A stretch of 57,596 bases of DNA from contig JABMRA010000087.1 in NCBI GenBank assembly GCA_013202925.1, positions 1-57,596 of the forward strand, written 5' to 3'. This stretch comes from Candidatus Omnitrophota bacterium. Its GTDB lineage: Bacteria; Omnitrophota; Gorgyraeia; Gorgyraeales; Gorgyraeaceae. The notes beneath the pieces are model-generated. The model was given only the letters and a program-made list of their open reading frames with translations, was not told the DNA's origin and did not search any database. Of the stretch, positions 10,826 to 57,596 are shown piece after piece (within the stretch, counting starts at the first letter, position 1; every line of letters begins with the position of its first letter). The position numbers and the translations under genes were made by a program.

Positions 10826-10858
10826 ATGGCCCTGATGCCCTAAAAGGTATTCCTCACC

Positions 10859-10887
10859 TTGACAAACCGCAAAGTGTATGGTATACT
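10859..10887 (+). promoter_or_regulatory. sigma70-type promoter (TTGACA, 17-nt spacer, TGGTATACT)
   Basis: -35 TTGACA at 10859-10864, 17-nt spacer, extended -10 TGgTATACT ending at 10887, 34 nt upstream of the cvpA-like start. Confidence 0.5.
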
Positions 10888-10921
10888 TCTTCTACATTCT
10901 ATTTGTTCCCCGTTTTAATAT

Positions 10922-11464
10922 ATGCCTCATATAAGGTTCAATTGGGTTGACATTCTTTTTGTAACCCTAGTAATTAGAATATGTTACATCGGCTATAAAA
11001 AAGGTCTTTTTTCTGAGCAATTTCGCCTTTTAGGCCTATTTACCGCATTCATTCTTTCTTTTAATAATTATACCAGGGTAAGTAATTTTTTGACGACCCA
11101 TACCTCATGGTCCGGTATAAAGCCGGACGCGGTCTCGTTCTTATTTATATTTTTACTTATACTTGCCATATTCAAGATCCTGACCAAAATGGCAGGTTTA
11201 TTTTTTGGCGGCGAAGAAAACGTTTCCATTTTCAACAGTCTTGCAGGGTTTGTATTGGCCCTGGCAAGAGGCCTTTTATTGATAGGCCTGATCTATGTTT
11301 TGCTGGTCAATAGTCATTTTAAATATTTATCCAATAGCGCAGAAGAAAGATCTTTTTCAGGTCAGTATGTGGCGGAGATAGCGCCTTTTGCATACAAGGC
11401 AGGAATGGCCATGTATCCGTGGAAGGCAACAGAGACACCGCTGGTGAAGCTGATAAACAGTTAA
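10922..11464 (+). CDS. CvpA-family membrane protein
   Basis: 180 aa, 4 TM helices. The N-terminal WVDILFVTLVIRICYIGYKKGLFSE is typical of the colicin V production protein family. Confidence 0.7.
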   Translation: MPHIRFNWVDILFVTLVIRICYIGYKKGLFSEQFRLLGLFTAFILSFNNYTRVSNFLTTHTSWSGIKPDAVSFLFIFLLILAIFKILTKMAGLFFGGEENVSIFNSLAGFVLALARGLLLIGLIYVLLVNSHFKYLSNSAEERSFSGQYVAEIAPFAYKAGMAMYPWKATETPLVKLINS

Positions 11465-28038: not shown

Positions 28039-28422
28039 ATGAGGCAAGAACTGAGAAGATTCGGGTTTAATCTAGGATTGGGCTTAAATATACTGGGATG
28101 CATCATGTTCTACAGGGGCAGGGGGCATTTTATATGGTTTACAGGCATTGGGTCTTTGAATCTGCTCCTTGCTATTCTGTGCCCGAAGGTATTAATACCT
28201 CTGAAGAAGGCCTTGGATCTTGTTATCCTTCTGGTCGGCCGCACAATAAACACGGTAAGTTTGACGATCGTCTTTTATTTGATATTCGCGCCTATCGGAA
28301 TCCTGCTGCGACTATTTGGCAGGGACCTGCTGCACCGGAGAATAGATAAGACAGCCGGTTCTTACTGGATCAAAAGGAAAGAGACGGCTTTTACACCGGA
28401 TTCTTACGAACGTATGGGTTGA
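28039..28422 (+). CDS. small membrane protein, SxtJ-like (commonly follows carbamoyltransferase genes)
   Basis: 127 aa with 3-4 TM helices, directly downstream of the carbamoyltransferase. The family call is from memory of gene context and general sequence character only. Confidence 0.45.
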   Translation: MRQELRRFGFNLGLGLNILGCIMFYRGRGHFIWFTGIGSLNLLLAILCPKVLIPLKKALDLVILLVGRTINTVSLTIVFYLIFAPIGILLRLFGRDLLHRRIDKTAGSYWIKRKETAFTPDSYERMG

Positions 28423-29259: not shown

Positions 29260-30987
29260 ATGAATGCGATCAGACTGGAAAATGTAGGTAAGAGGTTTAT
29301 ACTGACGCACCAGGGGGATAGTGCGACGAGAGGTTTTTTTCATTCTTTCCCTGGGCAGAAAATAGCCACTGAATTCTGGGCCTTAAGAGATATAAGCATG
29401 GAAATCGAAAAAGGCAGGGTGATCGGTGTAATAGGAAGGAATGGGGCAGGCAAGAGCACGCTGTTAAATTTACTCGCCGGGACATCGTCACCTACAAAAG
29501 GCAAGATTGAGATCAATGGCAGGGTTTCCAGTCTCCTTACTCTAGGAGCTGGTTTTCAGGATGAATTAACGGGAAAAGAGAATATATTCCTCAACAGTTC
29601 TATTCTAGGAATGAGCCGTAATGAGATAAATAAAAAATATCGCAGCATTGTGGAGTTTTCCGAACTGGATGGATTTTTAGATTCTCCGCTTCAGGTGTAT
29701 TCTCAGGGAATGCGGCTGCGTTTGGGTTTCAGCGTGGCCATTCATGTGGATTTTGATATCTTGCTGATTGACGAAATCCTGTCCGTGGGAGATGTATCAT
29801 TTCAGAAGAAGTCCTTTGACAAGATAGAGCAGCTCAGGAAACAGGGAAAAACTATGGTTGTCGTTACTCAGTCATTGGACATTGTTGAGAGGTTTTGCGA
29901 AGAGGCATATTTATTGGAGAACGGCGAAGTTGTTGAAAATGGAAATCCACAGAAGGTCGCCGGCCGCTATATAGAGCTATTAAGTGAAAAGAAGTTGCCT
30001 GAGACATTCCGGCAGAGATACGGAAATCTGAAATGGTGGGCTGATAAAAGGTTCTGGGATATGAGGGAGGGGAGCAAGGAGGTGCGGATTGTTGATGTCA
30101 GGATGTTTAATTCGCAGAAAAGAGAGACAAATCGATTTAAATCAGGAGAAAAGGTTACTGTCAAGGCCCAGTTTGTAGTAGATGAAGAGGTTAGCGAGCC
30201 CCATTTTGGTATAGCTATATTCCGCGAAGACGGACTTTATTGCTACGGGCCAAATACATTATTCGACGGCCATAAAATAGATAAACTTAACAAAGGAACA
30301 GGTTTTTTTGGCGTCGAGTACAAATCCTTGGATCTAAGGCCTGGTAAATATCGTTTTTCTATTGCCATCTGGGACAAAAACGAACTCTGGGCCTATGACT
30401 ATCATGTCGGTTTTTATAAATTTGAGATTACTGGTGAAGGCAGCGATGGGGAGTTGCTAAATTTAAAATATAGGTGGGAGCCGGAAAATTGGTGGCAAAG
30501 GTTTAAGATACCGCAGCTAGAAAAGACGGATCCCCTCCCCATTTTAAATCCTCATATGCAAGACAATATCTTATCTCCAGATATGGAGCTTGCCTCGGTT
30601 GAAATTTTAGATTCGTCAGATAATGTAAAGTCAGTTTTTAAAACCGGAGAGGATATCAAGATAAAGATGCGGTTTAAATACCTTAAAGAGCCCCATGACT
30701 CTTATCTATGGCTAGGATTATTTCGCAGCGATGATGTATATTGCCACGGGGTATCAAAAAGATTAAAAGAGGATGAGATTGTATTGGCCTATCCTCAAAT
30801 GCCCCTATTAACCGGAGACTATTATCTATCCGTAGGTGTATGGAAAAAGGATAAAAAGGAACCTTTACTGTATGGATATAAGCCGTCTTTATTTAAGATG
30901 TCTTTTTTGGGCCAGGACCACGGGACAGTATATCTAGAACATTCCTGGAATTGGGAACTTCCAAAGAATATAAAGGAGGATGCATAA
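29260..30987 (+). CDS. wzt: polysaccharide ABC transporter ATP-binding protein (Wzt/TagH-like) with two tandem C-terminal beta-sandwich (Wzt_C-like) domains
   Basis: Walker A GRNGAGKSTLL, signature YSQGMRLRLGF, Walker B ILLIDEIL. Two similar C-terminal segments follow, at aa 272-392 (VRIVDVRMFN..KSGEKVTVKAQF) and aa 441-560 (ASVEILDSSDN..KTGEDIKIKMRF). Confidence 0.85.
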   Translation: MNAIRLENVGKRFILTHQGDSATRGFFHSFPGQKIATEFWALRDISMEIEKGRVIGVIGRNGAGKSTLLNLLAGTSSPTKGKIEINGRVSSLLTLGAGFQDELTGKENIFLNSSILGMSRNEINKKYRSIVEFSELDGFLDSPLQVYSQGMRLRLGFSVAIHVDFDILLIDEILSVGDVSFQKKSFDKIEQLRKQGKTMVVVTQSLDIVERFCEEAYLLENGEVVENGNPQKVAGRYIELLSEKKLPETFRQRYGNLKWWADKRFWDMREGSKEVRIVDVRMFNSQKRETNRFKSGEKVTVKAQFVVDEEVSEPHFGIAIFREDGLYCYGPNTLFDGHKIDKLNKGTGFFGVEYKSLDLRPGKYRFSIAIWDKNELWAYDYHVGFYKFEITGEGSDGELLNLKYRWEPENWWQRFKIPQLEKTDPLPILNPHMQDNILSPDMELASVEILDSSDNVKSVFKTGEDIKIKMRFKYLKEPHDSYLWLGLFRSDDVYCHGVSKRLKEDEIVLAYPQMPLLTGDYYLSVGVWKKDKKEPLLYGYKPSLFKMSFLGQDHGTVYLEHSWNWELPKNIKEDA

Positions 30988-30988
30988 A

Positions 30989-33900
30989 ATGAAGAAGAAT
31001 TATCCTAACGTAGGCATAATCACGGTAAATTTCAATGGCAGGAAACACCTCAAGGAACTCTTTGATTCTGTCTTTCGCCTGCAATACCCAAAAGATAAAA
31101 TGGAAGTCATCCTTGTGGATAATGCCTCTACAGATGATTCAGTTAGATTTGTGAAAAAGAATTATCCTAAGGTAAGGATTATAAAAAATGACGTTAATAA
31201 TTACACTAAAGCAGTTAATTTAGGAATAGACTCAGCAGAAAAGGCTGAATATGTAGCATTGGTGAATAATGACACCAGGATGTCTAAGAATTGGCTTGTA
31301 GAGCTCATAGGCGTAATTTCTAAAGATAAGAAGATTGCCGCAGTCGGCAGTAAGATATTAAATATGAAAGGCAAGGTTCAGAACGCAGGCCATTATGAGC
31401 TCCCTAATTTTTACTGGGGAGAAAGGGGCGCTGGACAGAAGGCCAAGAGGTATACCACCGTTGAAGAAGTGCCCAGTTTATGCGGCGCTGCAGTGCTATA
31501 CAGAAAGGACCCCCTTTTTGAAACAGGCTTATTTGATGAAGACTTTGTCATATACGGTGAGGATGTGGATATGGCTTTAAGATTGCGGAAAAAGGGTTAT
31601 AAGCTGATGTTTGTTCCAAAGAGTATTATTTATCATGAATTTCATGGCACAGCCAGCGAAGACCTCGCTCATTATTATATTGAGAGGAATAGGTTGCTAT
31701 TTTTGGCAAAGCATTATCCATATAAGTTGAGTAACAGTCTTTTGGGAAGCGGATATTTTACTGCAGAAAAATCCATTGATTCCTGCAGCAAGATTTATTC
31801 CATATTTCCCGATGTAATCAAGAAGTTAATCAAGGCCCACCCGTTGGATATAGCAAGCGAGGTTGCCTCAGAGGTATTTGAAGAGATGGGCAAGATTATT
31901 AATTATGAAAATGATTTACTGGCAAAAGAGATAAACAAGATTACGGAAGACAGAAACAATACGTATCTTAACCACGCCCATGTGCTTAAAAAATTGGAAG
32001 AGGAAACAAGTAATGTTTTCAAAAAGGATAAGGAATTATCAGCGCTAAGGGATAAATACAGCAATCTTTCCGAACAACTCAAAAGTCGAACAGGCGAAGC
32101 TTCTCGTCAGCTCAAGATTATTTCAGATAAAGAAAAAGAGATCTCCACTCAGCTACGCCAGAGGATGGACGAGGTCCTTATAAAGGACGGACAACTAATT
32201 GAAAAGGATAGCCATATTACTGGTCTAGGCAATCAAATCAACCAATTAAATGCAGAGGTCCAAGAACACCTAAATTCTCTGCAAGCTAAGGAGTCTCTCT
32301 TAGCCGAAAGAGAGGCCGATCTTACCAACCTCAGGAATGAACTAAACAATATCTCCACTCAGCTACGCCAGAGAATGGACGAGGTCCTTATAAAGGATAA
32401 CCATATCACTGGTCTAGGCAATCAAATAGTCCAATTGAATTCACAGATAGCTGTCCTTAAAGAAGAGCTTGATAATCTTTCTGATCAGCTTCACAGAAGA
32501 ATGGACGAGGTCTTGTTAAAAGACAGTGAAATAAATTGTCTAAAAGACGAACTCAGTGGAATCTATAATTCAGAAGGATTTCGCTTTGTCCTACGTCCTC
32601 TCTGGACCATTCTTTGGCATTCACGTAAATTTTTGAGGGCAGCAAAAAGAAAACTAGGTCAGGCGTTCTGGCTAACAATTACAATTATATTGACACCAGT
32701 TTTCATAGTTTTAAGTTTATGCTTTTTCCTTGAGCACATAACCTGGTCTATCCTTAAACCATTGCTGAAAAGGGTATCCCCAAAAAGAAAAATAATGCCG
32801 ATCAAGGATAGTAAAATAAGCCTGGTTATGCCCAATTACAATGGAGTTGATTGCCTGAGGGAATGTCTTCCTTCTGTCTTTAGCGCTGATGGCTTCACTG
32901 ATGGCCAGAATGAAGTGTTGATAGTCGACGATGGAAGCACAGACGGAAGCGTGGATTTCATAAGAGAGCATTTTCCGCAAGTCAGGCTTATTCAGAATAA
33001 TAGGAACAGAGGGTTTGGTTTTACCTGTAATAGAGGCGTGAAGAGTGCCAGAAACGAGATCGTGGTTTTAATAAACAACGATATCATCCTGACCAAGGAT
33101 TTTCTGCAACCTTTAGTCGGCCATCTTCAAAAAGAGGATGTTTTCGCGGTGACCCCAAAACTCTACGCCTGGGACAGAAAGACGTTTAATTGGGGGATGC
33201 ATATGGGCCACTTTAAAAAGGGCTATATAAGTCTATGGAACGAGGCAGAGACGGGAAACGGAGATAGGATTAGTCAAACCTCACCTTCAATATTTGCCAT
33301 TGGTGGAGCAATGGTATTCAGAAAAAGTGACTTTCTCTGGCTGGGCGGGTTTGACAGTATCTATCGTCCGAATTGCTGGGAGGATATAGATATCTCTTAT
33401 CAGGCGTGGAAGAGGGGGCTGAAGGTCTTATATGAGCCAAAAAGCCTTATGTATCACAAGGCAAGGGCGACCCTTACTTATGAAAGGCCGAAGGAGATAA
33501 AGAATGAGCTCTTGTTTACATGGAAGAACATCACTGACTCCGAGATATTGAAGGATCATTTGAATCTATTGCCTATGAATTTCTATCGGAATAGACTTAA
33601 CTTCCTGAAGGGCTTTTTTTGGGCATTAGATTATTTGCCGCAGATGCTTCTGCACCGTCTTCTTAATAGAAGCTATTTAAAGGCCAGCGACAGGGGCATA
33701 TTCAGCAACTGTATGCGTTACTACAGGAATTTCATGCGACGCGGTTTTCGTCATTTAGAGGAGAACGAGAGGAAGAAAGTGCTGCTCATCACCCCATTTA
33801 TGCCTTATCCGCTTAAGCAGGGCGGAAAAATAAGGATCCACGCGTTGGCATCCCTGCTTAAAGATAAATTTGATATATCCCTCTTGGCCCTGATCCATCA

Positions 33901-36900
33901 TAAGGGAGAAGCGGATTACGCGCTTGAGCTGAAAGGGGTATTCAGGGATATCCACACCGTATATCCCAAGACAGATATAAAGAGTAGATTATATCCCCAG
34001 CGCTATAAATATGCGCACAGTCATGCCCTGATCGATAAGCTCAAAGAGATCCAGAAAAATCAACCGATCGACCTTATCCAGATAGAGTCAAATGAGTTAT
34101 TGTATCTCGTCAATTATGTAAAACACATCCCTATCATCTATACCGAGCACGATTCAAGCGTTTTGTTTTTCAGGGACTCTTACTATCAGATAAAGGACGG
34201 GACGGCCTTTTCTAATCTATTTGACTACCTCAAGAGGGTGCGCCTGCATCATTCGCTTTATAAGAAGTTAGACAGGGCCATATTGTTATCCCGGGAAGAC
34301 GAGGAGGTCCTGCGCCCATTTTTCCCCAAGACCAATTTCTCTTTTATTCCTACAGGAGTCGATATCGAGAAGTTTTCGTTTGTCCACCCCGACAGGCCTA
34401 AGGCAAAGAGATTGATTTATGTGGGTCATTATCCGCACTATCCAAATGAGGATGCGGTCATATATTTTATAAAAAAAATATTCCCCCGCATACAGAAGAG
34501 GATTCCGGAGATCGAATTTTTAATAGTCGGCTCAGGCCCTACGGAGAAGATTAAACAGATCTCTAATCAGCACAATATCAGGCTGATACCTGACGTGGAG
34601 GACGTGTGGTCGTATCTTCGCGAGTCAGCGATCTTTGTCAATCCGATAAGGATCAGCGCAGGCATCAAAGGCAAGGTCCTGGAGGCAATGGCCGCTGGCA
34701 TACCAGTGGTTTCTACAAGGGTCGGGTCGTCAGGTATAATGGCCAGAAACAAACAGGAGATCCTGATAGCAGATACGCCTTCTGCCTTTGCTCGCGCCGT
34801 AATAAAACTCTTAAAAGACGACACTTTGTATTCCGGACTTGCACATAATGCGAGGAATCTGGTTGAACAAAAATATGACTGGTGCAGGATATCGCAGTTA
34901 TTGAGCCAGGCCTATGACGAGACCATGGCATTTGATGCCTTGTCTCCGGTCAAGGAAGAGATGTCTTTCGATAAGATCGTGGATTTAAGCAACAGGATCG
35001 TAGAAGAGGCGGTCGAGAAAGGCAGGTTTTGTTCCGGCTTTAAATACGGGCCGGAAGAGCTGCATATAGAACTTACATATCGCTGCGACAGCAAGTGCGT
35101 CATGTGCGACCTCTGGGATCAGCACATAAGAGTCCCCAAGCAGGAAAAAGAGATGACCCTGGACGAGATCAGGAGATTTGTAGATCAATCGGAACATCTA
35201 AAAAAGATAAAGACAGTGGTCTTGTCCGGAGGCGAACCTTTTCTCCGCAAGGATTTAATAGAGATCAGCGGTTATTTTATAGAAAGATTTCCTGGTATTT
35301 CCCTGGGGATACTTACCAATGGGATCAACACAAAGGCCATAATCAAAACCACAAAAGAGATCATAAAGAGGCACAGGCCAAAGAATATCTGGCTGGGCAG
35401 TTCTCTCGATGGTATTGGCGAGGCGCACGACAGGATCAGGGGGAAGAGAGGGGCGTTTTCTGCCATTGAAAAAACCATCCAGGTCTGCAAAAAAGAAGGC
35501 ATAAACATCACCCTTACCTTTACCCTCTCAAGCAGGAATTACGACCAGTTGATTCCCGCGAAGAGGTTTGCCGAAAGCTACGGCATAGAGTTTTACATCC
35601 AGTTTGTAGTACCTAAAGAGACCAGGGAAAAAGGCGTTTTCAGCTTTACGCCTACTCAGTTAAAGAGGATCGAAGCCGATCTCCATAAGATGATGCAGGA
35701 AGAAATCAAAGATGTGGATTATCAAAGGCTTTCAAGGGAGCTTGAGAGCGATTCTTACCAGGGCCTTGTAGGAAAATTATATTACCTTTCGAACCTTGTA
35801 AGGTATCAAAAAAATCCAAAGAGATATTTCAGAAAATGTGTAGCAGGGACAAAGTTTGCGATGTTTTCGCCGTCCGGGGATCTGTATTTCTGCCCGGGGC
35901 TTAAAAATGGCAGTGTGGGCAGTATCCGAAAAGAGAAGTTCGACAGTCTTTGGACTTCAAAGAAGGCAGATAGCATAAGGGAGTTTATCTCGCATGAGCT
36001 CTGTCATTGCTGGCTGGTCTGCGTCGTCTTTCCGGTCATAGACCAGGCACGTTCATCCATAAAGGGCGCTGCTGAAAAGGATACGCTCGATATCTTAGTA
36101 AAGACAGAAGATAGAAAGGAAAAGATAGCCGCCTTTTTAGAAGAGGATATGCGCCTCGCGGAGAAAAACAGCAGTCTTAACGAAAGAGAATATCGCCTCG
36201 GGAAGATCGACCTGGAATCAACGCCGCAGGGCATCGGCATAGGCGCGCACTGGAAGTGCGATGCCAATTGCGTCTTTTGCCTGGGCGGTCATCCCAGACT
36301 TTTCGATCTAAATACCTATAATCAGTTCTTCGAGAGGAGGCTTTTTAATGTCCTGCCAAAGGCGGAATTTATAAACCTCTGCGGTTTTGGAGAGCTGCTC
36401 CTGATGCCCCGCTGTGACGAATTCCTGGATTACATGAACAAGAGCCTTCCGTTCAGCAACAAGATACTTACCACAAACGGCACAGCTTTGTCAGACAGGA
36501 TCAATCAAAGATTGACCGAGGGCAGGTATAGTGTGCAGATCTCTTTACATGCTTCAGAAAAGAGATTGCATAAGACGCTTACCCATATGGATTCCTTTGA
36601 CCGGATCATTGAACAGACACGGAACCTCCTTGAGATCCGGAAGAAACAGCAATCCCCGTCTGTAAATCTTGTCTCCGTGGTCAATAGTTTAAACATAGAG
36701 AATCTGCCTCAGCTCGTTGAATTCGCCGCTAAATTGAGAGTGGACAGCGTACTTGTTAATTATATGACGATATACAGCCCGGCGCATCTGAAGCTGTCAT
36801 GTTTCTTCAAGCAGAAGATCACCAACCGTATGTTTTCCATGGCAGAGGAAAAGGCGTCCAAGCACGGGCTTTCATTGACGCTCCCGCCGAAGTTTGGGGG

Positions 36901-37213
36901 CAACGGCAATGGTTCAAAATATCCAAGATGCTCTGATCCATGGAAATATCTCTACGTGGAGACAGAGGGCTCTATCCTGCCGTGCTGTTATGCAGGGGCC
37001 CATATCGGATATCTTTATAGAGATGACTTCCAGGAGGTCTGGAACGGGGAATTCTATAGAAATCTAAGAAAGTCATTGGCAGAGGGAAGGGCAGAGGGGT
37101 GGTGTAAGTACTGTTACAAAAACAAACCCTCGAATGTAAACGATATCCGTTCGCATGTGAGTTTCAGGCCTGATCTGCAACAGAAGATCCTGAAAGGGGT
37201 TAGCCTCAAATGA
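30989..37213 (+). CDS. giant multidomain protein: GT2, coiled-coil, TM, GT2, GT4, radical SAM, radical SAM/SPASM-like
   Basis: Residue numbers follow the track ORF that starts at 30980. GT2-A aa 10-235 (IITVNFNG..VDNASTDDS..YGEDVDM). Coiled coil aa about 300-530. TM aa 561-585. GT2-B aa 612-835 (VMPNYNG..VDDGSTDGS..WEDIDIS). GT4 aa 932-1310 (GIKGKVLEAMAAGIPVVST). rSAM-1 CDSKCVMC, first Cys at nt 35084, then GGEPFL. rSAM-2 CDANCVFC, first Cys at nt 36257, with the C-terminal Cys cluster CSDPW..PCCYAG..WCKYC. The ATG at 30989 sits about 9 nt after AAGGAGG and is preferred to 30980. Confidence 0.85.
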   Translation: MKKNYPNVGIITVNFNGRKHLKELFDSVFRLQYPKDKMEVILVDNASTDDSVRFVKKNYPKVRIIKNDVNNYTKAVNLGIDSAEKAEYVALVNNDTRMSKNWLVELIGVISKDKKIAAVGSKILNMKGKVQNAGHYELPNFYWGERGAGQKAKRYTTVEEVPSLCGAAVLYRKDPLFETGLFDEDFVIYGEDVDMALRLRKKGYKLMFVPKSIIYHEFHGTASEDLAHYYIERNRLLFLAKHYPYKLSNSLLGSGYFTAEKSIDSCSKIYSIFPDVIKKLIKAHPLDIASEVASEVFEEMGKIINYENDLLAKEINKITEDRNNTYLNHAHVLKKLEEETSNVFKKDKELSALRDKYSNLSEQLKSRTGEASRQLKIISDKEKEISTQLRQRMDEVLIKDGQLIEKDSHITGLGNQINQLNAEVQEHLNSLQAKESLLAEREADLTNLRNELNNISTQLRQRMDEVLIKDNHITGLGNQIVQLNSQIAVLKEELDNLSDQLHRRMDEVLLKDSEINCLKDELSGIYNSEGFRFVLRPLWTILWHSRKFLRAAKRKLGQAFWLTITIILTPVFIVLSLCFFLEHITWSILKPLLKRVSPKRKIMPIKDSKISLVMPNYNGVDCLRECLPSVFSADGFTDGQNEVLIVDDGSTDGSVDFIREHFPQVRLIQNNRNRGFGFTCNRGVKSARNEIVVLINNDIILTKDFLQPLVGHLQKEDVFAVTPKLYAWDRKTFNWGMHMGHFKKGYISLWNEAETGNGDRISQTSPSIFAIGGAMVFRKSDFLWLGGFDSIYRPNCWEDIDISYQAWKRGLKVLYEPKSLMYHKARATLTYERPKEIKNELLFTWKNITDSEILKDHLNLLPMNFYRNRLNFLKGFFWALDYLPQMLLHRLLNRSYLKASDRGIFSNCMRYYRNFMRRGFRHLEENERKKVLLITPFMPYPLKQGGKIRIHALASLLKDKFDISLLALIHHKGEADYALELKGVFRDIHTVYPKTDIKSRLYPQRYKYAHSHALIDKLKEIQKNQPIDLIQIESNELLYLVNYVKHIPIIYTEHDSSVLFFRDSYYQIKDGTAFSNLFDYLKRVRLHHSLYKKLDRAILLSREDEEVLRPFFPKTNFSFIPTGVDIEKFSFVHPDRPKAKRLIYVGHYPHYPNEDAVIYFIKKIFPRIQKRIPEIEFLIVGSGPTEKIKQISNQHNIRLIPDVEDVWSYLRESAIFVNPIRISAGIKGKVLEAMAAGIPVVSTRVGSSGIMARNKQEILIADTPSAFARAVIKLLKDDTLYSGLAHNARNLVEQKYDWCRISQLLSQAYDETMAFDALSPVKEEMSFDKIVDLSNRIVEEAVEKGRFCSGFKYGPEELHIELTYRCDSKCVMCDLWDQHIRVPKQEKEMTLDEIRRFVDQSEHLKKIKTVVLSGGEPFLRKDLIEISGYFIERFPGISLGILTNGINTKAIIKTTKEIIKRHRPKNIWLGSSLDGIGEAHDRIRGKRGAFSAIEKTIQVCKKEGINITLTFTLSSRNYDQLIPAKRFAESYGIEFYIQFVVPKETREKGVFSFTPTQLKRIEADLHKMMQEEIKDVDYQRLSRELESDSYQGLVGKLYYLSNLVRYQKNPKRYFRKCVAGTKFAMFSPSGDLYFCPGLKNGSVGSIRKEKFDSLWTSKKADSIREFISHELCHCWLVCVVFPVIDQARSSIKGAAEKDTLDILVKTEDRKEKIAAFLEEDMRLAEKNSSLNEREYRLGKIDLESTPQGIGIGAHWKCDANCVFCLGGHPRLFDLNTYNQFFERRLFNVLPKAEFINLCGFGELLLMPRCDEFLDYMNKSLPFSNKILTTNGTALSDRINQRLTEGRYSVQISLHASEKRLHKTLTHMDSFDRIIEQTRNLLEIRKKQQSPSVNLVSVVNSLNIENLPQLVEFAAKLRVDSVLVNYMTIYSPAHLKLSCFFKQKITNRMFSMAEEKASKHGLSLTLPPKFGGNGNGSKYPRCSDPWKYLYVETEGSILPCCYAGAHIGYLYRDDFQEVWNGEFYRNLRKSLAEGRAEGWCKYCYKNKPSNVNDIRSHVSFRPDLQQKILKGVSLK
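32141..32540 (+). repeat. about 210-bp periodic intragenic repeats encoding the coiled-coil (ISTQLRQRMDEVLIKD...HITGLGNQI.QLN)
   Basis: ATCTCCACTCAGCTACGCCAGAG(G/A)ATGGACGAGGTCCTTATAAAGGA at 32141 and 32351. A third degenerate copy (CAGCTTCACAGAAGAATGGACGAGGTCTTGTTAAAAGAC) lies near 32487. Confidence 0.75.
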
Positions 37214-44471: not shown

Positions 44472-46460
44472 ATGATAAAGAGAGACAGAGATTTAGAAGC
44501 ATATTATAAGAATCCGGCAATAGAATCCTGGACTTATGTACACATTGGGATGGAAAATCTACAATTCCACGATCCAGAGATGTATAGTAAGATAAAAGAA
44601 AAACAGGTTATGTTACTTACTGAGATCGATAAGCGAGTTAAGATTATTAGCCAGATTTGTGAGAGATTAGGATTGAATAATTATACAGAAATAAGATTTT
44701 ATATTGACCAGTTTTTACAAAAGTTTCCACTAGGCTTAAGAGATCATGTGGCTTGGGATGATGTTAATTTTATTTTTTTATATCTCCTAACTAAGATGCT
44801 CAGACCAAGGATAATAATCGAAACTGGCTGTAATGTTGGATTTAGCAGCACTTTTATTGCATTAGCAATTAAAGAAAACGATAATGGATGTATGTTTTAT
44901 ACTATGGATCCTCGCCTTGAACACTACCCACAGGGAAGCCCAATTTCTTTTAAATATAGCCATGAAAGACAGCAAGAGATTAATTATTATAGTCTAAGTC
45001 TAAGAGGGAAACATGAACCACTAGGTATTGTTCCACAAGATTTGAGGAAATATATAATTTTTAAGGCTGGAAGATCAAGTAATATTTTACCAGATCTACT
45101 TAAGGATAATCCCAAGATAGATATTTTTTTTCATGATTCAGATCATAGTTACAGAAACGCGATATGGGAATGTACGACAATTTGGCCTTACCTGAGAACT
45201 GGGGGTTATGTTTTGGTTCATGATGTAAGTCATAATTTAGCTTTTAAAGAAGCGTTTAGTAAAATGGAAATCTCAACCAAAGAAGATAACATGGGCATAG
45301 TTAAAAAAACAGATAAGGATTCTATTATGGAAGACCCATGGGCTGATTCACTTGATAATTCCAGACTCAATGATATTGAATATCTATCAAAGAAGCTTAA
45401 ATTAGAGTCATCCCCGCAGAAAATTATTATCCAACTGATGGATTCTTGTAGTTTAAATTGCGTTTTTTGTGCAGGAAGGAAAAGCAATGTAGTATCCAAT
45501 TTCGATAATTTTCGCTGTGGGTTGGAAGGTAAAATCTCGCGTTATATTTCCCAAGCTGATAAAATTATTTTTAAAACCTGTGGAGGGATTTTTCAATCAT
45601 TCGAAATAGAAAATATGATTGTACATTCCTATATTGATTATTTCCAAGAATCCTTTCCTGAAGTAGAAAGAATTTATTTTACTAACGGATTGGAATTAAC
45701 TCCCAGGCTATGTGATTTCATCATCTATTCACAAGGCATAAATAATGCACTGGATATAAATATTAAGAAAAGTACTTTTAATATTTTGTTATATGCTTCA
45801 AATAGTTGTTTGCACAAGATTTTGACAAACAGTGATAGTTTTTCTAGAATCATAGCCCAGGTCCAATATTTTCTTAAGTTAAGAAAGGATAATAATAATT
45901 CTAACATTCATCTTATCTTTGTAGCCACCACTCTCAATATTGAAGATCTGCCTGATTTTGTAAGATTGGCAGCAGATCTTGGAGTTGATAGAGTGATTTG
46001 TTATTATAATTATATATATGTCCCTGCCCAGAAATACCTTTCTTGCTTTTTCAAGCAAGGGCTTACTAATAAAATGCTGGATGAGGCTGAAAAGATAGCT
46101 CACAAATTGAATATAGCAATAGACCTACCGCCTAGATTTGGACTAAAGGATTACCCCATTACTACAGACATTTGTCGAGAGCCTTGGAGTCAAATCATGC
46201 TCAATGCTCAAGGTCACATCCTTCCCTGCGATGCATCAGAGGACACCAATGAGAGCTTGGAAGGAAAGGATTTCATGGATGTCTGGAATGGCTTTTATTA
46301 CCAGAACCTAAGAAAAGGCTTAATCAAGGGAAGTTGTTCGTGTTTCAAGCATTGCTTCCGCGCCAATCCTGCCTCAGTAAATGACTTTCGTTCGCATGTG
46401 ATCCATCGGGGAAAAGGAGGAGCGGATATAGATATATCATGGGGGGATAATTTTCAATGA
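44472..46460 (+). CDS. fusion of a class I SAM-dependent methyltransferase (CmcI/Methyltransf_24-like) and a radical SAM/SPASM-like domain
   Basis: N-terminal half: IIETGCNVGFSSTFIALAI...IFFHDSDHSY...GGYVLVHDV. C-terminal half: MDSCSLNCVFCAGR (first Cys at nt 45447) and a C-terminal region of about 190 aa that is near-identical in protein to the 43341 ORF. Confidence 0.8.
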   Translation: MIKRDRDLEAYYKNPAIESWTYVHIGMENLQFHDPEMYSKIKEKQVMLLTEIDKRVKIISQICERLGLNNYTEIRFYIDQFLQKFPLGLRDHVAWDDVNFIFLYLLTKMLRPRIIIETGCNVGFSSTFIALAIKENDNGCMFYTMDPRLEHYPQGSPISFKYSHERQQEINYYSLSLRGKHEPLGIVPQDLRKYIIFKAGRSSNILPDLLKDNPKIDIFFHDSDHSYRNAIWECTTIWPYLRTGGYVLVHDVSHNLAFKEAFSKMEISTKEDNMGIVKKTDKDSIMEDPWADSLDNSRLNDIEYLSKKLKLESSPQKIIIQLMDSCSLNCVFCAGRKSNVVSNFDNFRCGLEGKISRYISQADKIIFKTCGGIFQSFEIENMIVHSYIDYFQESFPEVERIYFTNGLELTPRLCDFIIYSQGINNALDINIKKSTFNILLYASNSCLHKILTNSDSFSRIIAQVQYFLKLRKDNNNSNIHLIFVATTLNIEDLPDFVRLAADLGVDRVICYYNYIYVPAQKYLSCFFKQGLTNKMLDEAEKIAHKLNIAIDLPPRFGLKDYPITTDICREPWSQIMLNAQGHILPCDASEDTNESLEGKDFMDVWNGFYYQNLRKGLIKGSCSCFKHCFRANPASVNDFRSHVIHRGKGGADIDISWGDNFQ

Positions 46461-50191: not shown

Positions 50192-51640
50192 ATGTGTGAA
50201 GCAATTTCTCCTCGTGTCTTTTTCACGTGGGATATTCATTATAAATGTAATTATTACTGCAGTTATTGCTTTTTGCATTTTGAGCCTGAAACGGCAAATA
50301 TTGAAGCAGTTTATTTAGAGGTCGAAGAGTGGGTTAAAATCTGGACAGATATTTATAAAAGATATGGTCCTTGCCATATCTTGGTGACCGGAGGAGAGCC
50401 GTTTACTTACCCGAATTTTATGGATTTGGTTTCTTCTTTATCAGAGATGCATACGTTTGGTTTTTCGACAAACCTTTCATGGGATATCAACGAGTTTATA
50501 AAAAAGGTGAACAGGCTTAAGGTAGAGATAGAGGCAAGTTTTCACCCGGAATTTATAGGCGCCGAAGAGTTTTTGAAGAAAATAAAATTATTAAAAAAGA
50601 AGGATTATTTGGTGAGCGCCACGGTTGTGGCATATCCTCTCTTGCTGGATAAGATTATAAAGTATAAAGAGATATTTAAAAAAGAAGGCGTCAGGTTGAA
50701 CCTCTATCCTTACAGGGGGCCGCATGATTCCAGGAATTATCCGGATGCATACTCAGAGTCAGAGAGGCAGCTCTTGAAAAAACTGGGTCTTGAGATCGGC
50801 ATAAAGGCCAGCAGGGGACTTATGGATGTATATAAATTAACGCAGGATGGCAATGCTCAGGAGAAAAAACAAGAAGGCAAGATCTGTAGGATGGGACAGA
50901 GATACGCAAAGATCATCCCGAACGGGGAGGTCTACAGGTGCTGTGCAGCTGTAAATAAAAAATGGGGAGATCTGGGCAATGTCATAAAAAAGACATTTGA
51001 ACTGCTTGATAGGCCTGGACTCTGTCCAGACCCCATGAACTGCACCTGTTATAAATCTATGGTCATGGGAGAAGAAGATAGATGGCTGGGGTATTGGAAG
51101 ATCCCCAATGACTTTAGGGCCGAAAAAAAGATGAGGGATGAATTAGGGGTCGCCAAGAAACTTCGTGACACTGGGAAAATAGAAGAGGCTGTTGATAAGA
51201 TAAACCAAATCTTGAAGACGCGGCCCGGGAACGTCAGGGCACTTACGTTACTCGGAGAAGTTTATTTACAAAAAAAAGATTTTGTAACTGCCGGTAATAC
51301 ATTGCAAGAGGCCTTAAAAAATAATTCTAACCCTGATGACGCCTCATGGATTTACAGGACGCTGGGCAGGTTTTATTTTGAGTCAGCCATGAATAATAAC
51401 GATACAAAAAAAGAAGGGTTCGGTCAATCTCTGGATTGCCTGGAAAAGGCAATAAGATTCGCAGATAAATCCAATAATGTCGCAGATAAAGCGTGGGCAC
51501 ACTATGAGATTGCCACTGTATATCATAATAAAAAGAATTACCCCAAGGCTCAGGAGAATCTAAAGATGGCCCTTGAATATGAGCCCGAAAACGGGCATTT
51601 TAGAGAACTTCGTACATTGTTGGAAAAGGACGCAAGGTGA
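50192..51640 (+). CDS. compact radical-SAM module (module 5) fused to C-terminal TPR repeats
   Basis: FTWDIHYKCNYYCSYC (nt 50246), TGGEPFTYP, ICRMGQRYAKIIPNGEVYRCC..CPDPMNCTC. TPR-like repeats from about aa 320 (LTLLGEVYLQKKDFVTAGNTLQEAL, AHYEIATVYHNKKNYPKAQENLKMAL). Confidence 0.8.
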   Translation: MCEAISPRVFFTWDIHYKCNYYCSYCFLHFEPETANIEAVYLEVEEWVKIWTDIYKRYGPCHILVTGGEPFTYPNFMDLVSSLSEMHTFGFSTNLSWDINEFIKKVNRLKVEIEASFHPEFIGAEEFLKKIKLLKKKDYLVSATVVAYPLLLDKIIKYKEIFKKEGVRLNLYPYRGPHDSRNYPDAYSESERQLLKKLGLEIGIKASRGLMDVYKLTQDGNAQEKKQEGKICRMGQRYAKIIPNGEVYRCCAAVNKKWGDLGNVIKKTFELLDRPGLCPDPMNCTCYKSMVMGEEDRWLGYWKIPNDFRAEKKMRDELGVAKKLRDTGKIEEAVDKINQILKTRPGNVRALTLLGEVYLQKKDFVTAGNTLQEALKNNSNPDDASWIYRTLGRFYFESAMNNNDTKKEGFGQSLDCLEKAIRFADKSNNVADKAWAHYEIATVYHNKKNYPKAQENLKMALEYEPENGHFRELRTLLEKDAR

Positions 51641-53627: not shown

Positions 53628-54440
53628 TTGAAATTTACTTTTGGCTGGGATTTATGTTATACATGCAATTACCGCTGTCCGTATTGTGGCATTTGGGAAA
53701 ACAGGTCAGATAGCGATCTTTTTCTGTCTGCCGAAGAATGGGGTGCGATTTGGGACAGGGTCCATGCCAAGTATGGAAGCTGCCACATCTACATGTCAGG
53801 GGGCGAACCGTCTTTTTACCCTGGTTTTTATGACCTAGCGTTAAGATTGGCGCAGAGGCATTCGATAGAGATATGCACCAACCTGTCCTGGGATATAGAT
53901 AGATTGGTGCCGCAGATCCCGGCTGGCACATTAAAGATAGCCGCGACCTTTCATCCAACGTTTGCCAGGTTTGAGGAATTTTTTGAAAATGCGGTAAGGG
54001 TAAAGGAGTATCTACCTAATTCGCAGATATATTATGTGGCGCATCCAGGCCAGATCAGGGAAATGCCTGAAAGGAGCAGGAGATTAAAAGAGCAAGGCGT
54101 AGATCTTATACCATTACCTCTTAGGGGAGACGGATATGTGCTTAACTCAGACGAAGAAAAAAGGATAGTTGAGGAGGTAAGTCCTTACAAAGGCGAGAAG
54201 ATAGAATATCAGTTACAGAGGATCTCGCCTAAAGGCAAGCTGTGCAGGGCAGGCCAGTTTTACGCTGTTATCAGGGCAAATGGCGCGGTGGACCGCTGCA
54301 GTCAGCATAGAAACGGAGGGCTTGGAAATTTTTTGTCAGAGGAGTTTGGTTTATTCGACAAACCTGTTCTTTGCGAGAAGGACTACTGTCCAATAGAATC
54401 ACAATGGATAATAAATGAACAAAGAATTAGAACTAACTGA
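53628..54440 (+). CDS. single compact radical-SAM module (module 8)
   Basis: TTG start 6 nt after AAGGAG. FGWDLCYTCNYRCPYC (nt 53664), SGGEPSFYP, LCRAGQFYAVIRANGAVDRC..CEKDYCP. Confidence 0.75.
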   Translation: MKFTFGWDLCYTCNYRCPYCGIWENRSDSDLFLSAEEWGAIWDRVHAKYGSCHIYMSGGEPSFYPGFYDLALRLAQRHSIEICTNLSWDIDRLVPQIPAGTLKIAATFHPTFARFEEFFENAVRVKEYLPNSQIYYVAHPGQIREMPERSRRLKEQGVDLIPLPLRGDGYVLNSDEEKRIVEEVSPYKGEKIEYQLQRISPKGKLCRAGQFYAVIRANGAVDRCSQHRNGGLGNFLSEEFGLFDKPVLCEKDYCPIESQWIINEQRIRTN

Positions 54441-55014
54441 AAACAAAATCAGGAAAGTAATTGATGAACTAAGGCAATATTATAGAAGTCTAGAATTCGG
54501 CCCTGTTAGCGATGAGGAAGGCCGCATCTTGCAGATATTGATTGAAATTTCAAATGCTAAAGATGTTTTAGAAATAGGTACATCACTCGGGGTTTCTTCG
54601 CTTTGGATGACCTTAGGTCTTTTAAAGACAAAGGGGAAATTGATAACCTTTGAAGCTATGCCTGAACATGCGCAGTTTGCAAGACAAAATTTTGAAAAAG
54701 CCGGCGTACAGGATATTATTACTCTTATAGAGAGAGACGCTGTATATTTTAGTCCATTATTAAAAGACAAATTTGATTTCATATTTATGGACGGACTCGA
54801 AAGAGAATATTTAATGTTCTTTAATCTTTTTTTCCCTTTGTTGAAGGAAGGAGGCATTATTGTTGCTCATGATGTTATAACAAAGGCGAATGATGCGCAG
54901 GATTACATTGAAACATTAAACAAAGATAGGCGTGTTACTAATTGTATTATCAGAGGCCCTGAGATAGCAACGGGCATGCTTATAACTTATAAGAATAAGG
55001 AATTGACAGGTTAA
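54415..55014 (+). CDS. class I SAM-dependent O-methyltransferase (caffeoyl-CoA OMT / Methyltransf_3-like)
   Basis: VLEIGTSLGVSSLWM (motif I), FDFIFMDGLEREY, and GGIIVAHDV. 26-nt overlap with the upstream gene. Confidence 0.75.
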   Translation: MNKELELTENKIRKVIDELRQYYRSLEFGPVSDEEGRILQILIEISNAKDVLEIGTSLGVSSLWMTLGLLKTKGKLITFEAMPEHAQFARQNFEKAGVQDIITLIERDAVYFSPLLKDKFDFIFMDGLEREYLMFFNLFFPLLKEGGIIVAHDVITKANDAQDYIETLNKDRRVTNCIIRGPEIATGMLITYKNKELTG

Positions 55015-55020: not shown

Positions 55021-57596
55021 ATGGGCAAAAGGCAGACAGGTAATTTACAAGTAGCTTTTCCGCGAAAAACCCCTCCTTACAGAGTTTTTTTCACATGGGA
55101 GATAACATACAATTGTAACTATCGCTGCACTTATTGCCATGCCCCAAAACCAGGGAATCCTGATACAAGAAAAACGACTTCTCTGGACGCAAAGAAATGG
55201 ATAGGGATATGGGACGATGTGTATAAGAATTACGGGGCATGTTTTATTCTTATAAGCGGCGGGGAGCCCTTTGCCTACCCGTCTTTTATGGATCTGGTAA
55301 CGCAGCTTCATAAAAAACACATAATCGAACTTTGCACAAATCTGGAATGGGATGTGAAGCCATTTGTAAAAAATATGGATCCAAAAAGGATAAAGGTCGC
55401 GACCAGCCTGCACCCGGAGTTTGCCGATCTGGACAGGTTTTTGCATAGGCTGAAACTTCTGAAGGACAATGGCTTCAGGACGCATGTGAATTTTGTCCCA
55501 TGGCCCCCGTTTTTAGAAAGAATGGCGGAATACAAGGAAAAGGTGGAGGCGCTGGGCGTTCAATTTATATTGCAGCCTTTTATAGGAGATTATGAGGGCA
55601 GGAGATATCCTCAGGGTTACACTGAATCCGAAAGAGAATATTTTAAGATATTCAAGGATTCCTGTAATATAAGCACGCTCGATTTCAAGACGACCAACGA
55701 ATCCAACAAGAAAGGCAAACTCTGCAGAATGGGACAGAATTACGCATTTATTCATCCTGACGGGGCTGCAGACAGGTGCTGTAAGGATCACAGCGTAGCA
55801 TTGGGTAATGTGATAGACAAGACATTTAGGTTGCTGGAAGAGCCGGCTGCCTGCACAATCGAAGAATGCAACTGCTGGCGGTGCATGCTCGTAGAGAAAG
55901 AACCTGAATGGGTAAATCACTGGGGCTGGGCCGAGATAGAAGACATAGAGCCAGTCGCTATAAAATCAGAACCCTCCGGAGCGAGGCAGGGCGAGGTTTT
56001 GGATGGAAGGGATTCTGGTGCGAGGGTGGCGCTGGTACAGCTGCCGCCATGGGGAGTCTTTGATCCCCCTAACGCGCTTGCGCAGATGTCCAGCTATATA
56101 AAGCGGGACGGTCACAAGGCGGCAGTGTTTGATGTCAATGTCGGATTGTATAATAGCAAAAGAGAGCAGTATAAGACAGTATGGGCCATAGAGCAGAGCG
56201 GATTCTGGCATAATCAGGAGAATGTTTTAAAGTTCTTCAATGATAACAGCGAGACAATCAATGATTTCATCCAAAGGATTATTGCTGTTGAGCCAGAAGT
56301 CGTCGGCCTTTCCGTAAGCTCGGCTTCTTTGCACTTTGCGATGGAGTTTGTTAAGAAGATAAAAGAGAAGAGGCCTCAGGTAAAGATTGTTTTTGGAGGG
56401 GCCATGTTTTTTGTCCAGGTGGATATGGAATCCATTTTAAATAATGGCTGTGTGGACATAATTATTCTCGGGGAAGGAGAAGAATCCTTTTCCGAATTGC
56501 TGCAGATATTAAGGGATGGCAGGGACCTTGGATTATGCAGGGGGATATGCTTTAAAAAAGGCGGCAAGATAGTGAATACAGGGCCAAGGGAATACATGAA
56601 AAATCTGGATGAACTTCCGTTTCTGGATTTCAGTGATTTGCCTCTGGACAGATATGACCCGCCAGGGCATCTGGGCAGACATATTTCCCTTATGACAAGC
56701 CGCGGGTGCATACAGAATTGCGTGTTCTGTGGCCCAAAGGCCTACTGGCAGGGATTCAGGACAATGAGCGGTAAGCGCATCTATGATGAGATAAGGTACC
56801 ATATTGCCTTAAACCCAGATATAGAGCATATAGAATTCCTTGATCTGCTTTTTAATGGAAGCATTAAGACCTTAAATGACTTCTGTGATTTAATGATCAG
56901 CGACCCGCCTAAGCCGGGCTTAAAATGGCACGTCAATGCGATCATCAGGCCAGAGATGACTTTGGAGGTATTTCAGAAGATGAAGCGTGCCGGGTGCCAT
57001 CACATAACTTATGGCATTGAATCTGGCTCTCAAAGGGTCTTGGGCCTGATGAAAAAACGTTATAAGGTAAAAGATGCGGATGATGTCCTTGAGAATAATC
57101 ATAAGGCAGGCATAGAGGTTACCTGCAATTTTATGTTTGGCTTCCCCGGAGAGACAGAGGAGGATTTTCAAGAGACCCTTGATTTTTTAAGGCGCAATTC
57201 GAGATATATCACAACCGCCTATCCCAGTCGCACGTATTGCACAGTAGAGCCTTTTAGTTACATGGAAAAACAGATGGAAGAGTTTGATATGGTGCCGAAT
57301 AAGGATTATCCTATCTATTGGGAGTCGCGGGACAGCCGCAATAATTATCCTGAGAGGCTCAGGAGGTGCGAGGTGTTTTCCAGCCTGGCCTTATCCCTGG
57401 ACGTAGCAGTTGGGAGCGGGCTTCAGACCTCGGTGGAATTGGATAAATGGTTCAGTCTCGGTTTTTACTATCTTGCCAAAAAGGACAGCGGGTCAGCCAA
57501 AAGGTCTTTCCAGAATTACCTGAAACTGGACCCCAAAAATGAGGTTATAAATAATAAGATTCACGAGCTTGATAATGCGCTCAATGCAGACAGGCC
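55021..57596 (+). CDS. fusion of compact radical-SAM module 9 and a B12-binding radical SAM domain, 3'-truncated by the window edge (not in the supplied ORF track)
   Basis: My own translation from ATG 55021 has no stop to nt 57596. MGKRQTGNLQVAFPRKTPPYRVFFTWEITYNCNYRCTYC (Cys at nt 55114) ...LCRMGQNYAFIHPDGAADRCC..CTIEECNC.. linker ..VALVQLPPWGVFDPPNALAQMSSYIKRDGHKAAVFDVNV...SRGCIQNCVFC (Cys at nt 56707)...YGIESGSQRV...LGFYYLAKKDSGSAKRSF. The minus-strand track ORFs here are antisense artefacts. Confidence 0.8.
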   Translation, partial: MGKRQTGNLQVAFPRKTPPYRVFFTWEITYNCNYRCTYCHAPKPGNPDTRKTTSLDAKKWIGIWDDVYKNYGACFILISGGEPFAYPSFMDLVTQLHKKHIIELCTNLEWDVKPFVKNMDPKRIKVATSLHPEFADLDRFLHRLKLLKDNGFRTHVNFVPWPPFLERMAEYKEKVEALGVQFILQPFIGDYEGRRYPQGYTESEREYFKIFKDSCNISTLDFKTTNESNKKGKLCRMGQNYAFIHPDGAADRCCKDHSVALGNVIDKTFRLLEEPAACTIEECNCWRCMLVEKEPEWVNHWGWAEIEDIEPVAIKSEPSGARQGEVLDGRDSGARVALVQLPPWGVFDPPNALAQMSSYIKRDGHKAAVFDVNVGLYNSKREQYKTVWAIEQSGFWHNQENVLKFFNDNSETINDFIQRIIAVEPEVVGLSVSSASLHFAMEFVKKIKEKRPQVKIVFGGAMFFVQVDMESILNNGCVDIIILGEGEESFSELLQILRDGRDLGLCRGICFKKGGKIVNTGPREYMKNLDELPFLDFSDLPLDRYDPPGHLGRHISLMTSRGCIQNCVFCGPKAYWQGFRTMSGKRIYDEIRYHIALNPDIEHIEFLDLLFNGSIKTLNDFCDLMISDPPKPGLKWHVNAIIRPEMTLEVFQKMKRAGCHHITYGIESGSQRVLGLMKKRYKVKDADDVLENNHKAGIEVTCNFMFGFPGETEEDFQETLDFLRRNSRYITTAYPSRTYCTVEPFSYMEKQMEEFDMVPNKDYPIYWESRDSRNNYPERLRRCEVFSSLALSLDVAVGSGLQTSVELDKWFSLGFYYLAKKDSGSAKRSFQNYLKLDPKNEVINNKIHELDNALNADR

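Follow-up and report, generated by a model that had tools for sequence, protein, structure and literature searches.

The 57,596-bp stretch of DNA analysed here (the window, whose positions are used throughout) is an entire NCBI contig from a Candidatus Omnitrophota bacterium (assembly GCA_013202925.1, contig JABMRA010000087.1), and it ends within a long open reading frame (ORF) that starts at position 55021. This frame encodes about three quarters of a conserved enzyme with three active sites, in which fusion probably links consecutive radical steps on one glycan-related substrate. Read together with its homologues, the complete protein is predicted to have a compact-B12-compact architecture (cBc below), that is, three conserved radical S-adenosylmethionine (SAM) sites, one of them of the cobalamin (B12) type, held on one chain by flexible linkers.

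Translation from the ATG at 55021 runs to the end of the window through 858 codons without a stop, with two bases left over. The remaining five frames of the same stretch hold 14–59 stops each, and given the base composition of the region an open frame of this length is expected by chance with a probability of about 5e-24. A sequence-only reading of the window had proposed the frame, placing its start six nucleotides past the stop of an O-methyltransferase gene (TAA, 55012–55014) and counting more than 858 codons; translation finds no in-frame stop between 55021 and 57596, and all of the peptides then quoted (the linker, SRGCIQNCVFC, YGIESGSQRV and LGFYYLAKKDS) are present in the translation. 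The same reading noted that the frame was missing from the ORF track. It is indeed absent, but for a technical reason, because the lister omits ORFs that run off the source and thus shows only minus-strand ORFs after 55014; a search of some 5.8 billion proteins returned an identical NCBI entry of 859 residues, named "radical SAM protein, partial" (P0001). Extension of the contig by exact DNA matching, which had also been proposed, gave nothing, the last 41 nucleotides of the window having no exact match in metagenome_contigs. We inferred the missing C-terminus from a homologue that is 82% identical to the window protein (P0002).

The protein search also returned 23 further clusters that are 50–82% identical to the window protein and cover 98–100% of it. 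The full-length homologues are 1115–1167 residues long, apart from one of 1475, so the window ends short of a third module (Table 1): past the B12 half and a TPR-like hairpin these proteins continue into another compact module (...SFNWDIHYRCNYRCPYCWF...), and one of them (P0006) has a fourth. The fusion of two radical SAM classes seen in the original reading is therefore genuine and conserved, but it is not bipartite, as the homologues add a second compact module of about 275 residues. In the alignment of 23 sequences two of the cysteine triads (C32/C36/C39 and C553/C557/C560 in P0002 numbering) are invariant and the third (C865/C869/C872) nearly so, the gap being the truncated P0001; the alignment also shows the two GGEP motifs and the auxiliary cysteines to be conserved. 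Among proteins named by NCBI, the cBc form comes from Candidatus Omnitrophica only.

Table 1. Features of the open frame and its upstream neighbour in the window, and the corresponding separate genes of locus L085 (positions on that contig)
Feature	Position	Strand	Remarks
Class I O-methyltransferase gene (PF01596)	54415..55014	+	Pfam Methyltransf_3, 91.7 bits; 6 nt before the partial CDS
Partial CDS, 858 codons	55021..57596	+	N-terminal ~76% of the predicted three-module (cBc) radical SAM protein
Module 1 (M9), compact twitch-like radical SAM domain, residues 1-303	55021..55929	+	includes C-terminal E..W..HW helix
CNYRCTYC, putative [4Fe-4S] triad C32, C36, C39	55114..55137	+	invariant in 23 orthologues and 9 paralogues
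SGGEPF, SAM-binding GGE motif	55255..55272	+	G80, G81, E82 invariant
Auxiliary-cluster Cys region, C235-x12-G-x4-C253/C254...C278-x4-C283-x-C285-x2-C288	55723..55884	+	conserved cysteines
Inter-module linker 1, residues 304-334	55930..56022	+	unconserved, variable length, predicted disordered
B12-binding Rossmann-type domain, ~residues 335-500	56023..56520	+	PF02310, 51.2 bits vs cutoff 32.1, residues 411-493
Radical SAM core, residues 559-723	56695..57189	+	PF04055; CIQNCVFC triad at 56707-56730
TPR-like helical hairpin, C-terminus of module 2 (WFSLGFYYLAKKDSGSAKRSFQNYLKLDPKN)	57448..57540	+	conserved in all homologues
Start of linker 2	57541..57596	+	window ends ...NADR(P), eight residues before module 3 in P0002: NADKPCLNGGISFNWDIHYRCNYRCPYCWF
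L085 compact gene	7929-8948		57-58% identity to M9 and the P0002 N-module
L085 B12 gene	9039-10607		59-60% identity to the B12 half
L085 compact gene	10608-11453		56% identity to module 3

The first 300 or so residues had been assigned to a family of CNYRC-type modules as its ninth member in the window, which agrees with what we find. Nine CNY[RKY]C modules are spread over the ORFs at 46457, 48212, 50192, 51669, 53628 and 55021, and the ninth (M9) is 34–39% identical to the other eight (E 1e-53 to 1e-80). The Pfam family Radical_SAM (PF04055) matches two stretches of the window protein with 116.9 bits against a gathering threshold of 29.5, and Fer4_12 matches residues 31–100. As modelled by AlphaFold2, the compact modules, of about 280–300 residues, consist of a (beta/alpha)6 core and then a Cys-rich hairpin region. 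The only extra cysteines invariant in all nine modules of the window are C235, C253, C278 and C283, which would suffice for a single auxiliary cluster, the number found in twitch enzymes; C254 and C285 are additionally invariant among the orthologues. The closest structural neighbours of M9 found by Foldseek are SkfB (6e-11) and BlsE (1e-9), along with ChlB, SuiB, CteB, PqqE, anSME and viperin, at TM-scores of about 0.55 and roughly 15% identity, and a profile search against PDB sequences also finds SkfB (1.2e-8) with an alignment that spans the Cys region.

With the SPASM and twitch enzymes (SkfB, BlsE, anSME, SuiB, CteB and PqqE; SpeY and DesII) the compact modules thus share the (beta/alpha)6 core, the C-terminal Cys-rich beta-hairpin and the C-x12-G-x4-C pattern, but they have no N-terminal recognition domain, and their four extra cysteines follow the arrangement C...C...C-x4-C instead of the seven-Cys SPASM pattern. 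PF13186 (SPASM) has no match in M9 at E<=0.01, and the seven cysteines typical of that domain are not found. The spacing C235-x12-G-x4-C253, followed by C278 and C283, falls within the C-x9-15-G-x4-C of twitch-type enzymes, and the best fold match is the twitch enzyme SkfB; M9 may be of this type. Among named models, NF038073 ("STM4011 family radical SAM protein") is the only one that aligns with the whole compact module (residues 31–286 to positions 11–254 of 278). M9 scores 75.9 bits and M8 61.4 against a cutoff of 200, so we regard NF038073 as a related family of which M9 is not a member; only multi-module proteins pass, their modules being summed (P0006, 208.5 bits). No member of the compact family has been characterised, and the family is rare: among 1.84 billion proteins, 208 representatives reach E<=1e-30 and 1170 reach E<=1e-10. 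Three fusions of an O-methyltransferase with a compact module (P0058, P0062 and P0063) are 61–64% identical to M9. The last of these, from locus L003, joins an M9-type module to the O-methyltransferase; in the window and in L004 this methyltransferase is instead the next gene upstream.

The rest of the translated protein, residues 335–858, is a complete B12-binding radical SAM enzyme, with homology to ORF 41769 starting at residue 335. It had been called a full paralogue of the B12-binding enzymes at 41769 and 37210, and the alignments bear this out (52% and 37% identity, respectively, spanning residues 2–519 of 523). C563, C567 and C570 of the window protein correspond to the invariant C553, C557 and C560 of P0002. 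For the C-terminal hairpin, there are Pfam matches to TPR_1/TPR_2 in homologues and in ORF 37210, and a weak match to a tetratricopeptide repeat (TPR) in the PDB. The B12-binding domain lies upstream of the radical SAM barrel, which is the domain order of class B enzymes, and with the P0002 model as query Foldseek returns TsrM (3e-18), OxsB (8e-17), MgmA (1e-16), CysS (1e-16), AprD4 (3e-16) and TokK (2e-14). The closest PDB sequence match is the glutamine C-methyltransferase of methyl-coenzyme M reductase (MCR; PDB ID: 9ccb, E 7e-17). Domain order and fold both identify module 2 as a putative class B-type radical SAM enzyme. It shares with these enzymes (TsrM, TokK, CysS, MgmA, OxsB and AprD4) the B12 Rossmann domain followed by the CxxxCxxC barrel, but differs in having a conserved TPR-like tail and, uniquely, two flanking radical SAM domains in the same chain; identities are 13–18%, and its context is glycan biosynthesis, where theirs is antibiotic, cofactor or ribosomally synthesised and post-translationally modified peptide (RiPP) biosynthesis. 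Its scores lie under the cutoff of every named B12-type subfamily in NCBIfam: RiPP C-methyltransferase TIGR03975 (152.7 bits versus 281.85), HpnJ (142.6 versus 577.6), ApyD (129.7 versus 750), PhpK (122.8 versus 600), BchE (114.8 versus 481) and the MgmA type (101.9 versus 360).

The linkers between the modules are flexible. At the first junction, the 23 homologues share a conserved helix with the pattern E..W..HW, followed by 19–40 unalignable residues, among which the window protein has a 10-residue insertion relative to P0002. Because M4, M5 and M7, paralogues that are unfused to B12, have the same helix, we assign it to the compact module. The second junction consists of 5–45 variable residues. 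The AlphaFold2 model of P0002 (mean predicted local distance difference test, pLDDT, of 77.4) folds well in three domains and drops below a pLDDT of 50 at residues 306–321 and 846–853; its predicted TM-score (pTM) of 0.51 is too low for any inter-domain geometry to be claimed. A frameshift near 55950–56030 had been named as what would undo the fusion. The alternative frames are rich in stops over 55861–56130, G+C content at third codon positions (GC3) is even across the junction, and the same frame continues in 23 independent assemblies. The fusion is real and maintained by selection.

Comparison with relatives, proposed earlier as a Rosetta-stone test, gives a positive result. We built hidden Markov models of the compact and B12 modules and classified all stop-to-stop ORFs of at least 200 residues in 158 fetched loci and the window. 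With c for a compact and B for a B12-type module, stand-alone genes dominate (287 c and 144 B), followed by cc (33), Bc (15, and 3 more cut by contig ends), cBc (8), cBcc (3), ccc (3), cB (3, and 2 cut, the window included) and Bcc (2). A neighbour-joining tree of 146 B12 domains places that of the window in a clade of 11 members, all fused, whose immediate sister lineages are stand-alone genes. On a 65-kb JGI contig (L085) the three modules are found as three separate adjacent genes in the same order as in the fusion (Table 1). The first two are separated by a 90-nt spacer with several stops and an AGGA-type sequence resembling a ribosome-binding site, and the TAA preceding the third directly abuts its ATG. 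The same split triad occurs in L099. A different arrangement is seen in L159 (1–16924; GCA_016930715.1, JAFGGC010000007.1), where nearly all of about 15 consecutive genes are radical SAM genes of the compact, B12 and SPASM types and none is fused; orthologues of M8, M9 and module 3 are adjacent, and the locus would represent a fully "unpacked" state of the same system. Several independent fusion events, combined with a conserved order, are a classical argument for a shared pathway or complex.

Two further loci were considered as split triads (L003 759–4640 and L006 3956–7192) and rejected, since module trees place their B12 and compact genes in other paralogue groups. Likewise, long tblastn spans in the scan of species-representative genomes were not counted as fusions, as their ORF architecture showed them to be tandem separate genes. 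Other combinations do occur as finished proteins. For instance, in Candidatus Gygaella obscura and related contigs (L018, L145 and L146, 7944–10928) a complete 995-residue cB protein with a linker of about 145 residues and no third module directly follows a 903-residue Bc-like protein, so that the two-module form described in the earlier reading also exists as a finished architecture. In L001 (14802–17270) a Bc protein carries a compact module that is sister to module 3 of the cBc gene of the same locus, which suggests that the B-c part was duplicated internally not long ago; the two genes have a sulfatase-family gene between them.

The genes around the frame point to a surface glycan. From 22684 to the end of the window all genes are read in the same direction and lie −35 to +128 nt apart. 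They begin with a GT4 glycosyltransferase, a WecA-type transferase, an FAD amine-oxidase-like protein, a carbamoyltransferase, Wzm, and Wzt with a Wzt_C domain. A 2077-residue protein with the order GT2-GT2-GT4-rSAM/SPASM-rSAM/SPASM (rSAM, radical SAM) comes next, then B12-type and SPASM radical SAM enzymes and a PMT_2 (GT-C) protein, and finally a methyltransferase-radical SAM fusion, the compact-module genes and the O-methyltransferase. The families identified include PF01061 (ORF 28430), PF00005 with PF14524 (ORF 29260) and PF00953 (ORF 23835), besides GT4 and GT2 domains; by its predicted proteins the window has the components of an ABC-transporter-dependent (Wzm/Wzt) surface glycan pathway. 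There are 17 CxxxCxxC motifs within the roughly 27 kb of 30980–57596. The 2077-residue ORF (30980–37213, plus strand) has two GT2, one GT4 and two radical SAM/SPASM domains, the latter with the motifs CDSKCVMC at residue 1369 and CDANCVFC at residue 1760, and would link glycosyltransferases covalently to radical SAM enzymes.

A similar context is found for the homologues, whose loci contain GT9, GT2 and GT4 glycosyltransferases, carbamoyltransferases, GDSL/TPR proteins, PMT_2 proteins, sulfatase-family proteins and ABC-2 exporters. In L002, L004 and L006 it consists of GT9/GT2/GT4, PMT_2 and carbamoyltransferase genes, and in L085 of an ABC-2 exporter pair with a GT2. An NCBIfam scan of the neighbouring enzymes gave no above-cutoff match naming a substrate.

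On this evidence we infer, rather than observe, that the three modules very probably act on one substrate, as had been argued from the two-part fusion: both the fusion and the collinearity speak for it, and the occurrence of the same three units as separate neighbouring genes in relatives is a further argument for one shared substrate. The modules would carry out consecutive radical steps in the cytoplasm, most likely on a sugar of a lipid-linked glycan or of its activated precursor. We place a lipid-linked glycan substrate in the cytoplasm because SAM and a low-potential reductant are available only there. Wzm/Wzt systems assemble the whole glycan in that compartment before exporting it. Judging from class B enzymes, the B12 module would most likely catalyse a C-methylation, with methylcobalamin as the methyl donor and a carbon radical as the acceptor, and by analogy with twitch-type radical SAM enzymes acting on sugars, the flanking compact modules would most likely abstract hydrogen atoms, for example in an epimerisation, oxidation or deoxygenation. 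The fusion may serve to keep the stoichiometry and to pass an intermediate from site to site.

A broader reading, which we hold only tentatively, is that the cBc protein is one station of a hitherto unrecognised tailoring system that works at the level of the polysaccharide, with about twenty radical SAM sites of the compact twitch, cobalamin and SPASM types remodelling unactivated C–H bonds of a lipid-linked glycan before export; its three sites would then act in order on one sugar residue, abstracting hydrogen, methylating carbon and performing another radical step. Such a system would be the carbohydrate counterpart of the tailoring of proteusin-type peptides, and several of its radical SAM sites share a chain with one another, with glycosyltransferases or with methyltransferases. 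In proteusin (polytheonamide) tailoring, the radical SAM epimerase PoyD acts together with the B12-type C-methyltransferases PoyB/C. The likeness is that a polymer is heavily remodelled by hydrogen-abstracting radical SAM enzymes and cobalamin-dependent C-methylases, and TIGR03975 is the top NCBIfam match of module 2; the difference is that the substrate there is a ribosomal peptide and the enzymes are separate, whereas here no precursor gene is seen and the neighbours are glycosyltransferases and Wzm/Wzt.

Several points weigh against a three-step enzyme of this kind. None of the family members has a characterised substrate, product or activity, and each module scores below the curated cutoffs of all named families, the best matches of the B12-type module being RiPP C-methyltransferase models at about half their cutoff. 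The pTM of the model lends no support to a fixed arrangement of the domains. Collinearity is not universal, as the B12c-type gene of L159 lies 4 kb from the orthologues of M9 and module 3, and an unsupported neighbour-joining tree places the N-module of the L003 cBc protein outside the M9 clade. Finally, the full cBc form was found in 0 of 76 loci from species-representative genomes, and is therefore confined to a narrow lineage.

Methylation is a separate matter. The fold neighbourhood of module 2 includes non-methylating class B enzymes, AprD4 and OxsB, among its top structural matches (E ~1e-16), so that methylation is not guaranteed, and the models of HpnJ and BchE score on a par with those of methylases. 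Nor do cobalamin binding and methyl transfer have a sequence signature shared by all such enzymes. The B12 module might thus catalyse a dehydration (as in AprD4), a rearrangement (OxsB), a cyclisation (BchE) or an HpnJ-like reaction, which would leave the logic of the fusion unchanged. We see this as possible, if rather doubtful, given that most characterised class B enzymes are methylases, that the closest PDB sequence match is one too, and that the B12-binding domain scores above its Pfam cutoff.

The modules could also tailor a nucleotide-activated monosaccharide before its incorporation, yielding a branched, C-methylated or deoxy sugar. All of the characterised radical SAM enzymes that modify sugars act on small molecules, and BlsE, DesII, SpeY and AprD4 are structural neighbours of the modules. 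There is also a split transketolase next to the cluster in L085 (15847–17630, beside a GT2 and a SPASM radical SAM gene), which may hint at branched-chain sugar synthesis; transketolases are an enzyme type associated with the synthesis of branched sugars. We nonetheless consider this route unlikely: no nucleotidyltransferase or 4,6-dehydratase genes are seen in the cluster of the window, nine to ten paralogous modules are many for one monosaccharide, and the fusion of SPASM radical SAM domains to three glycosyltransferase domains favours a polymer as the substrate.

A RiPP-type maturase, which would methylate, cross-link or epimerise a peptide or surface protein bound by the TPR-like tail, appears improbable. 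In NCBIfam the B12 half matches models of RiPP C-methyltransferases best (TIGR03975 and ApyD), the best structural neighbours of M9 include the RiPP maturases SkfB, ChlB, CteB and SuiB, and TPR elements are common in the locus. The scores are far under the cutoffs, however, and the compact modules start at the radical SAM core and leave no space for an N-terminal peptide-recognition domain, though no dedicated search for RiPP recognition elements was made. Further, no precursor-like ORF is seen in the tightly spaced cluster, whose sole sizeable gap holds a 127-residue membrane ORF, and every locus examined has glycosyltransferases and a glycan exporter as its conserved neighbours. An artefact of assembly or sequencing, by which a lost stop or a frameshift would join adjacent genes, might be suspected from the linker of the window (among the longest of the 23 aligned proteins), from the in-frame TTG (55999) and GTG (56026) just before the B12 homology and from the split forms in relatives, but is highly improbable given the same continuous frame in 23 independently assembled clusters (NCBI, JGI, ENA and Logan), the stop-rich alternative frames, the even GC3 and the in-frame conservation of the E..W..HW start of the linker.

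There is a precedent for a pair of radical SAM domains that occur both fused and split. FO synthase is found either as fused FbiC or as split CofG/CofH, two radical SAM domains acting on one product (PMC11917521). The window protein and the L085 genes show the same duality, but there is no sequence relationship, and here three and sometimes four radical SAM domains of two classes, one of them cobalamin-type, are associated with a glycan. Our literature searches on Omnitrophota radical SAM enzymes, on STM4011, on radical SAM enzymes with O-antigen or polysaccharide and on proteins with multiple radical SAM domains found no description of this architecture or of glycan clusters rich in radical SAM genes. 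A preprint on Omnitrophota genomes merely lists radical SAM among the Pfam families of a "sugar metabolism" module for giant proteins, and a paper on the S-layer glycan of Kuenenia, considered as invoking radical SAM methylases, was set aside because the term does not occur there.

If the proposed chemistry is true, the coats of Omnitrophota and Elusimicrobiota would be glycans with C-methylated or otherwise radically edited sugars, which would bear on the surface biology of ultra-small, host-associated bacteria and on new biocatalysts for C–H functionalisation. Nearly all that is known of radical SAM chemistry on sugars comes from pathways to small-molecule antibiotics. To our knowledge no surface-polysaccharide cluster with some 17–19 radical SAM domains has been described, and we know of no single polypeptide with three radical SAM active sites of two classes. 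Should the chemistry be wrong, the protein is still a clean and conserved multi-radical SAM fusion that ties an uncharacterised radical SAM family to a B12 enzyme. The fused and split pairs (the window protein and P0002 against L085) offer a ready experimental design, in which three small genes whose products are expected to form a complex can be set against a natural fusion. The gene is of more interest as an entry to the whole radical SAM-rich cluster than singly.

Arrays of compact and B12-type genes extend to metagenome-assembled genomes (MAGs) of Elusimicrobiota/Endomicrobiaceae and to some labelled Planctomycetia. Those of Elusimicrobia (an Elusimicrobiota MAG, L016, and GWA2_69_24, L026) have up to 10 compact and 4 B12-type genes in 24 kb. 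Suites of radical SAM genes near nitrogenase paralogues have been reported in Elusimicrobia, with GWA2_69_24 among the genomes (10.1101/765248). A crude motif test of the fetched stretches, GWA2_69_24 included, found no NifH-type P-loop (GKGG[IV]GK[ST]), and neither the window nor the Omnitrophota loci show the link to nitrogenase paralogues. Distant single modules occur in Myxococcota and Proteobacteria; in the cultured myxobacterium Enhygromyxa salina DSM 15201 (L046 8686–11802), a distant (~29%) ORF with two compact modules lies beside a SPASM radical SAM gene and a GT28-like ORF, and could give experimental access to the compact family.

A few neighbouring genes deserve mention in their own right. 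Two more B12-type radical SAM ORFs lie upstream in the window (9383–10825 and 17188–18513), among housekeeping genes (DnaG, RpoD); the first is HpnJ-like, with 394 bits, under the 577.6 cutoff. The Wzt ATPase (29260–30987, plus strand) has two Wzt_C carbohydrate-binding stretches; characterised systems use this domain to recognise a modification that terminates the glycan chain. The membrane ORF of 127 residues (28039–28422, plus strand) is predicted between the carbamoyltransferase and wzm and has no Pfam or NCBIfam match; a small ORF likewise adjoins the carbamoyltransferase in L002. Further fusions in the window are a Methyltransf_24-radical SAM/SPASM protein of 662 residues (44472–46460, plus strand) and a compact radical SAM module with a TPR array, of 482 residues (50192–51640, plus strand), which has a relative that is 42% identical (P0072). 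Yet another permutation is found in L085 (2485–5469), where a 994-residue protein combines a B12-type radical SAM enzyme, TPR and a radical SAM/SPASM enzyme.

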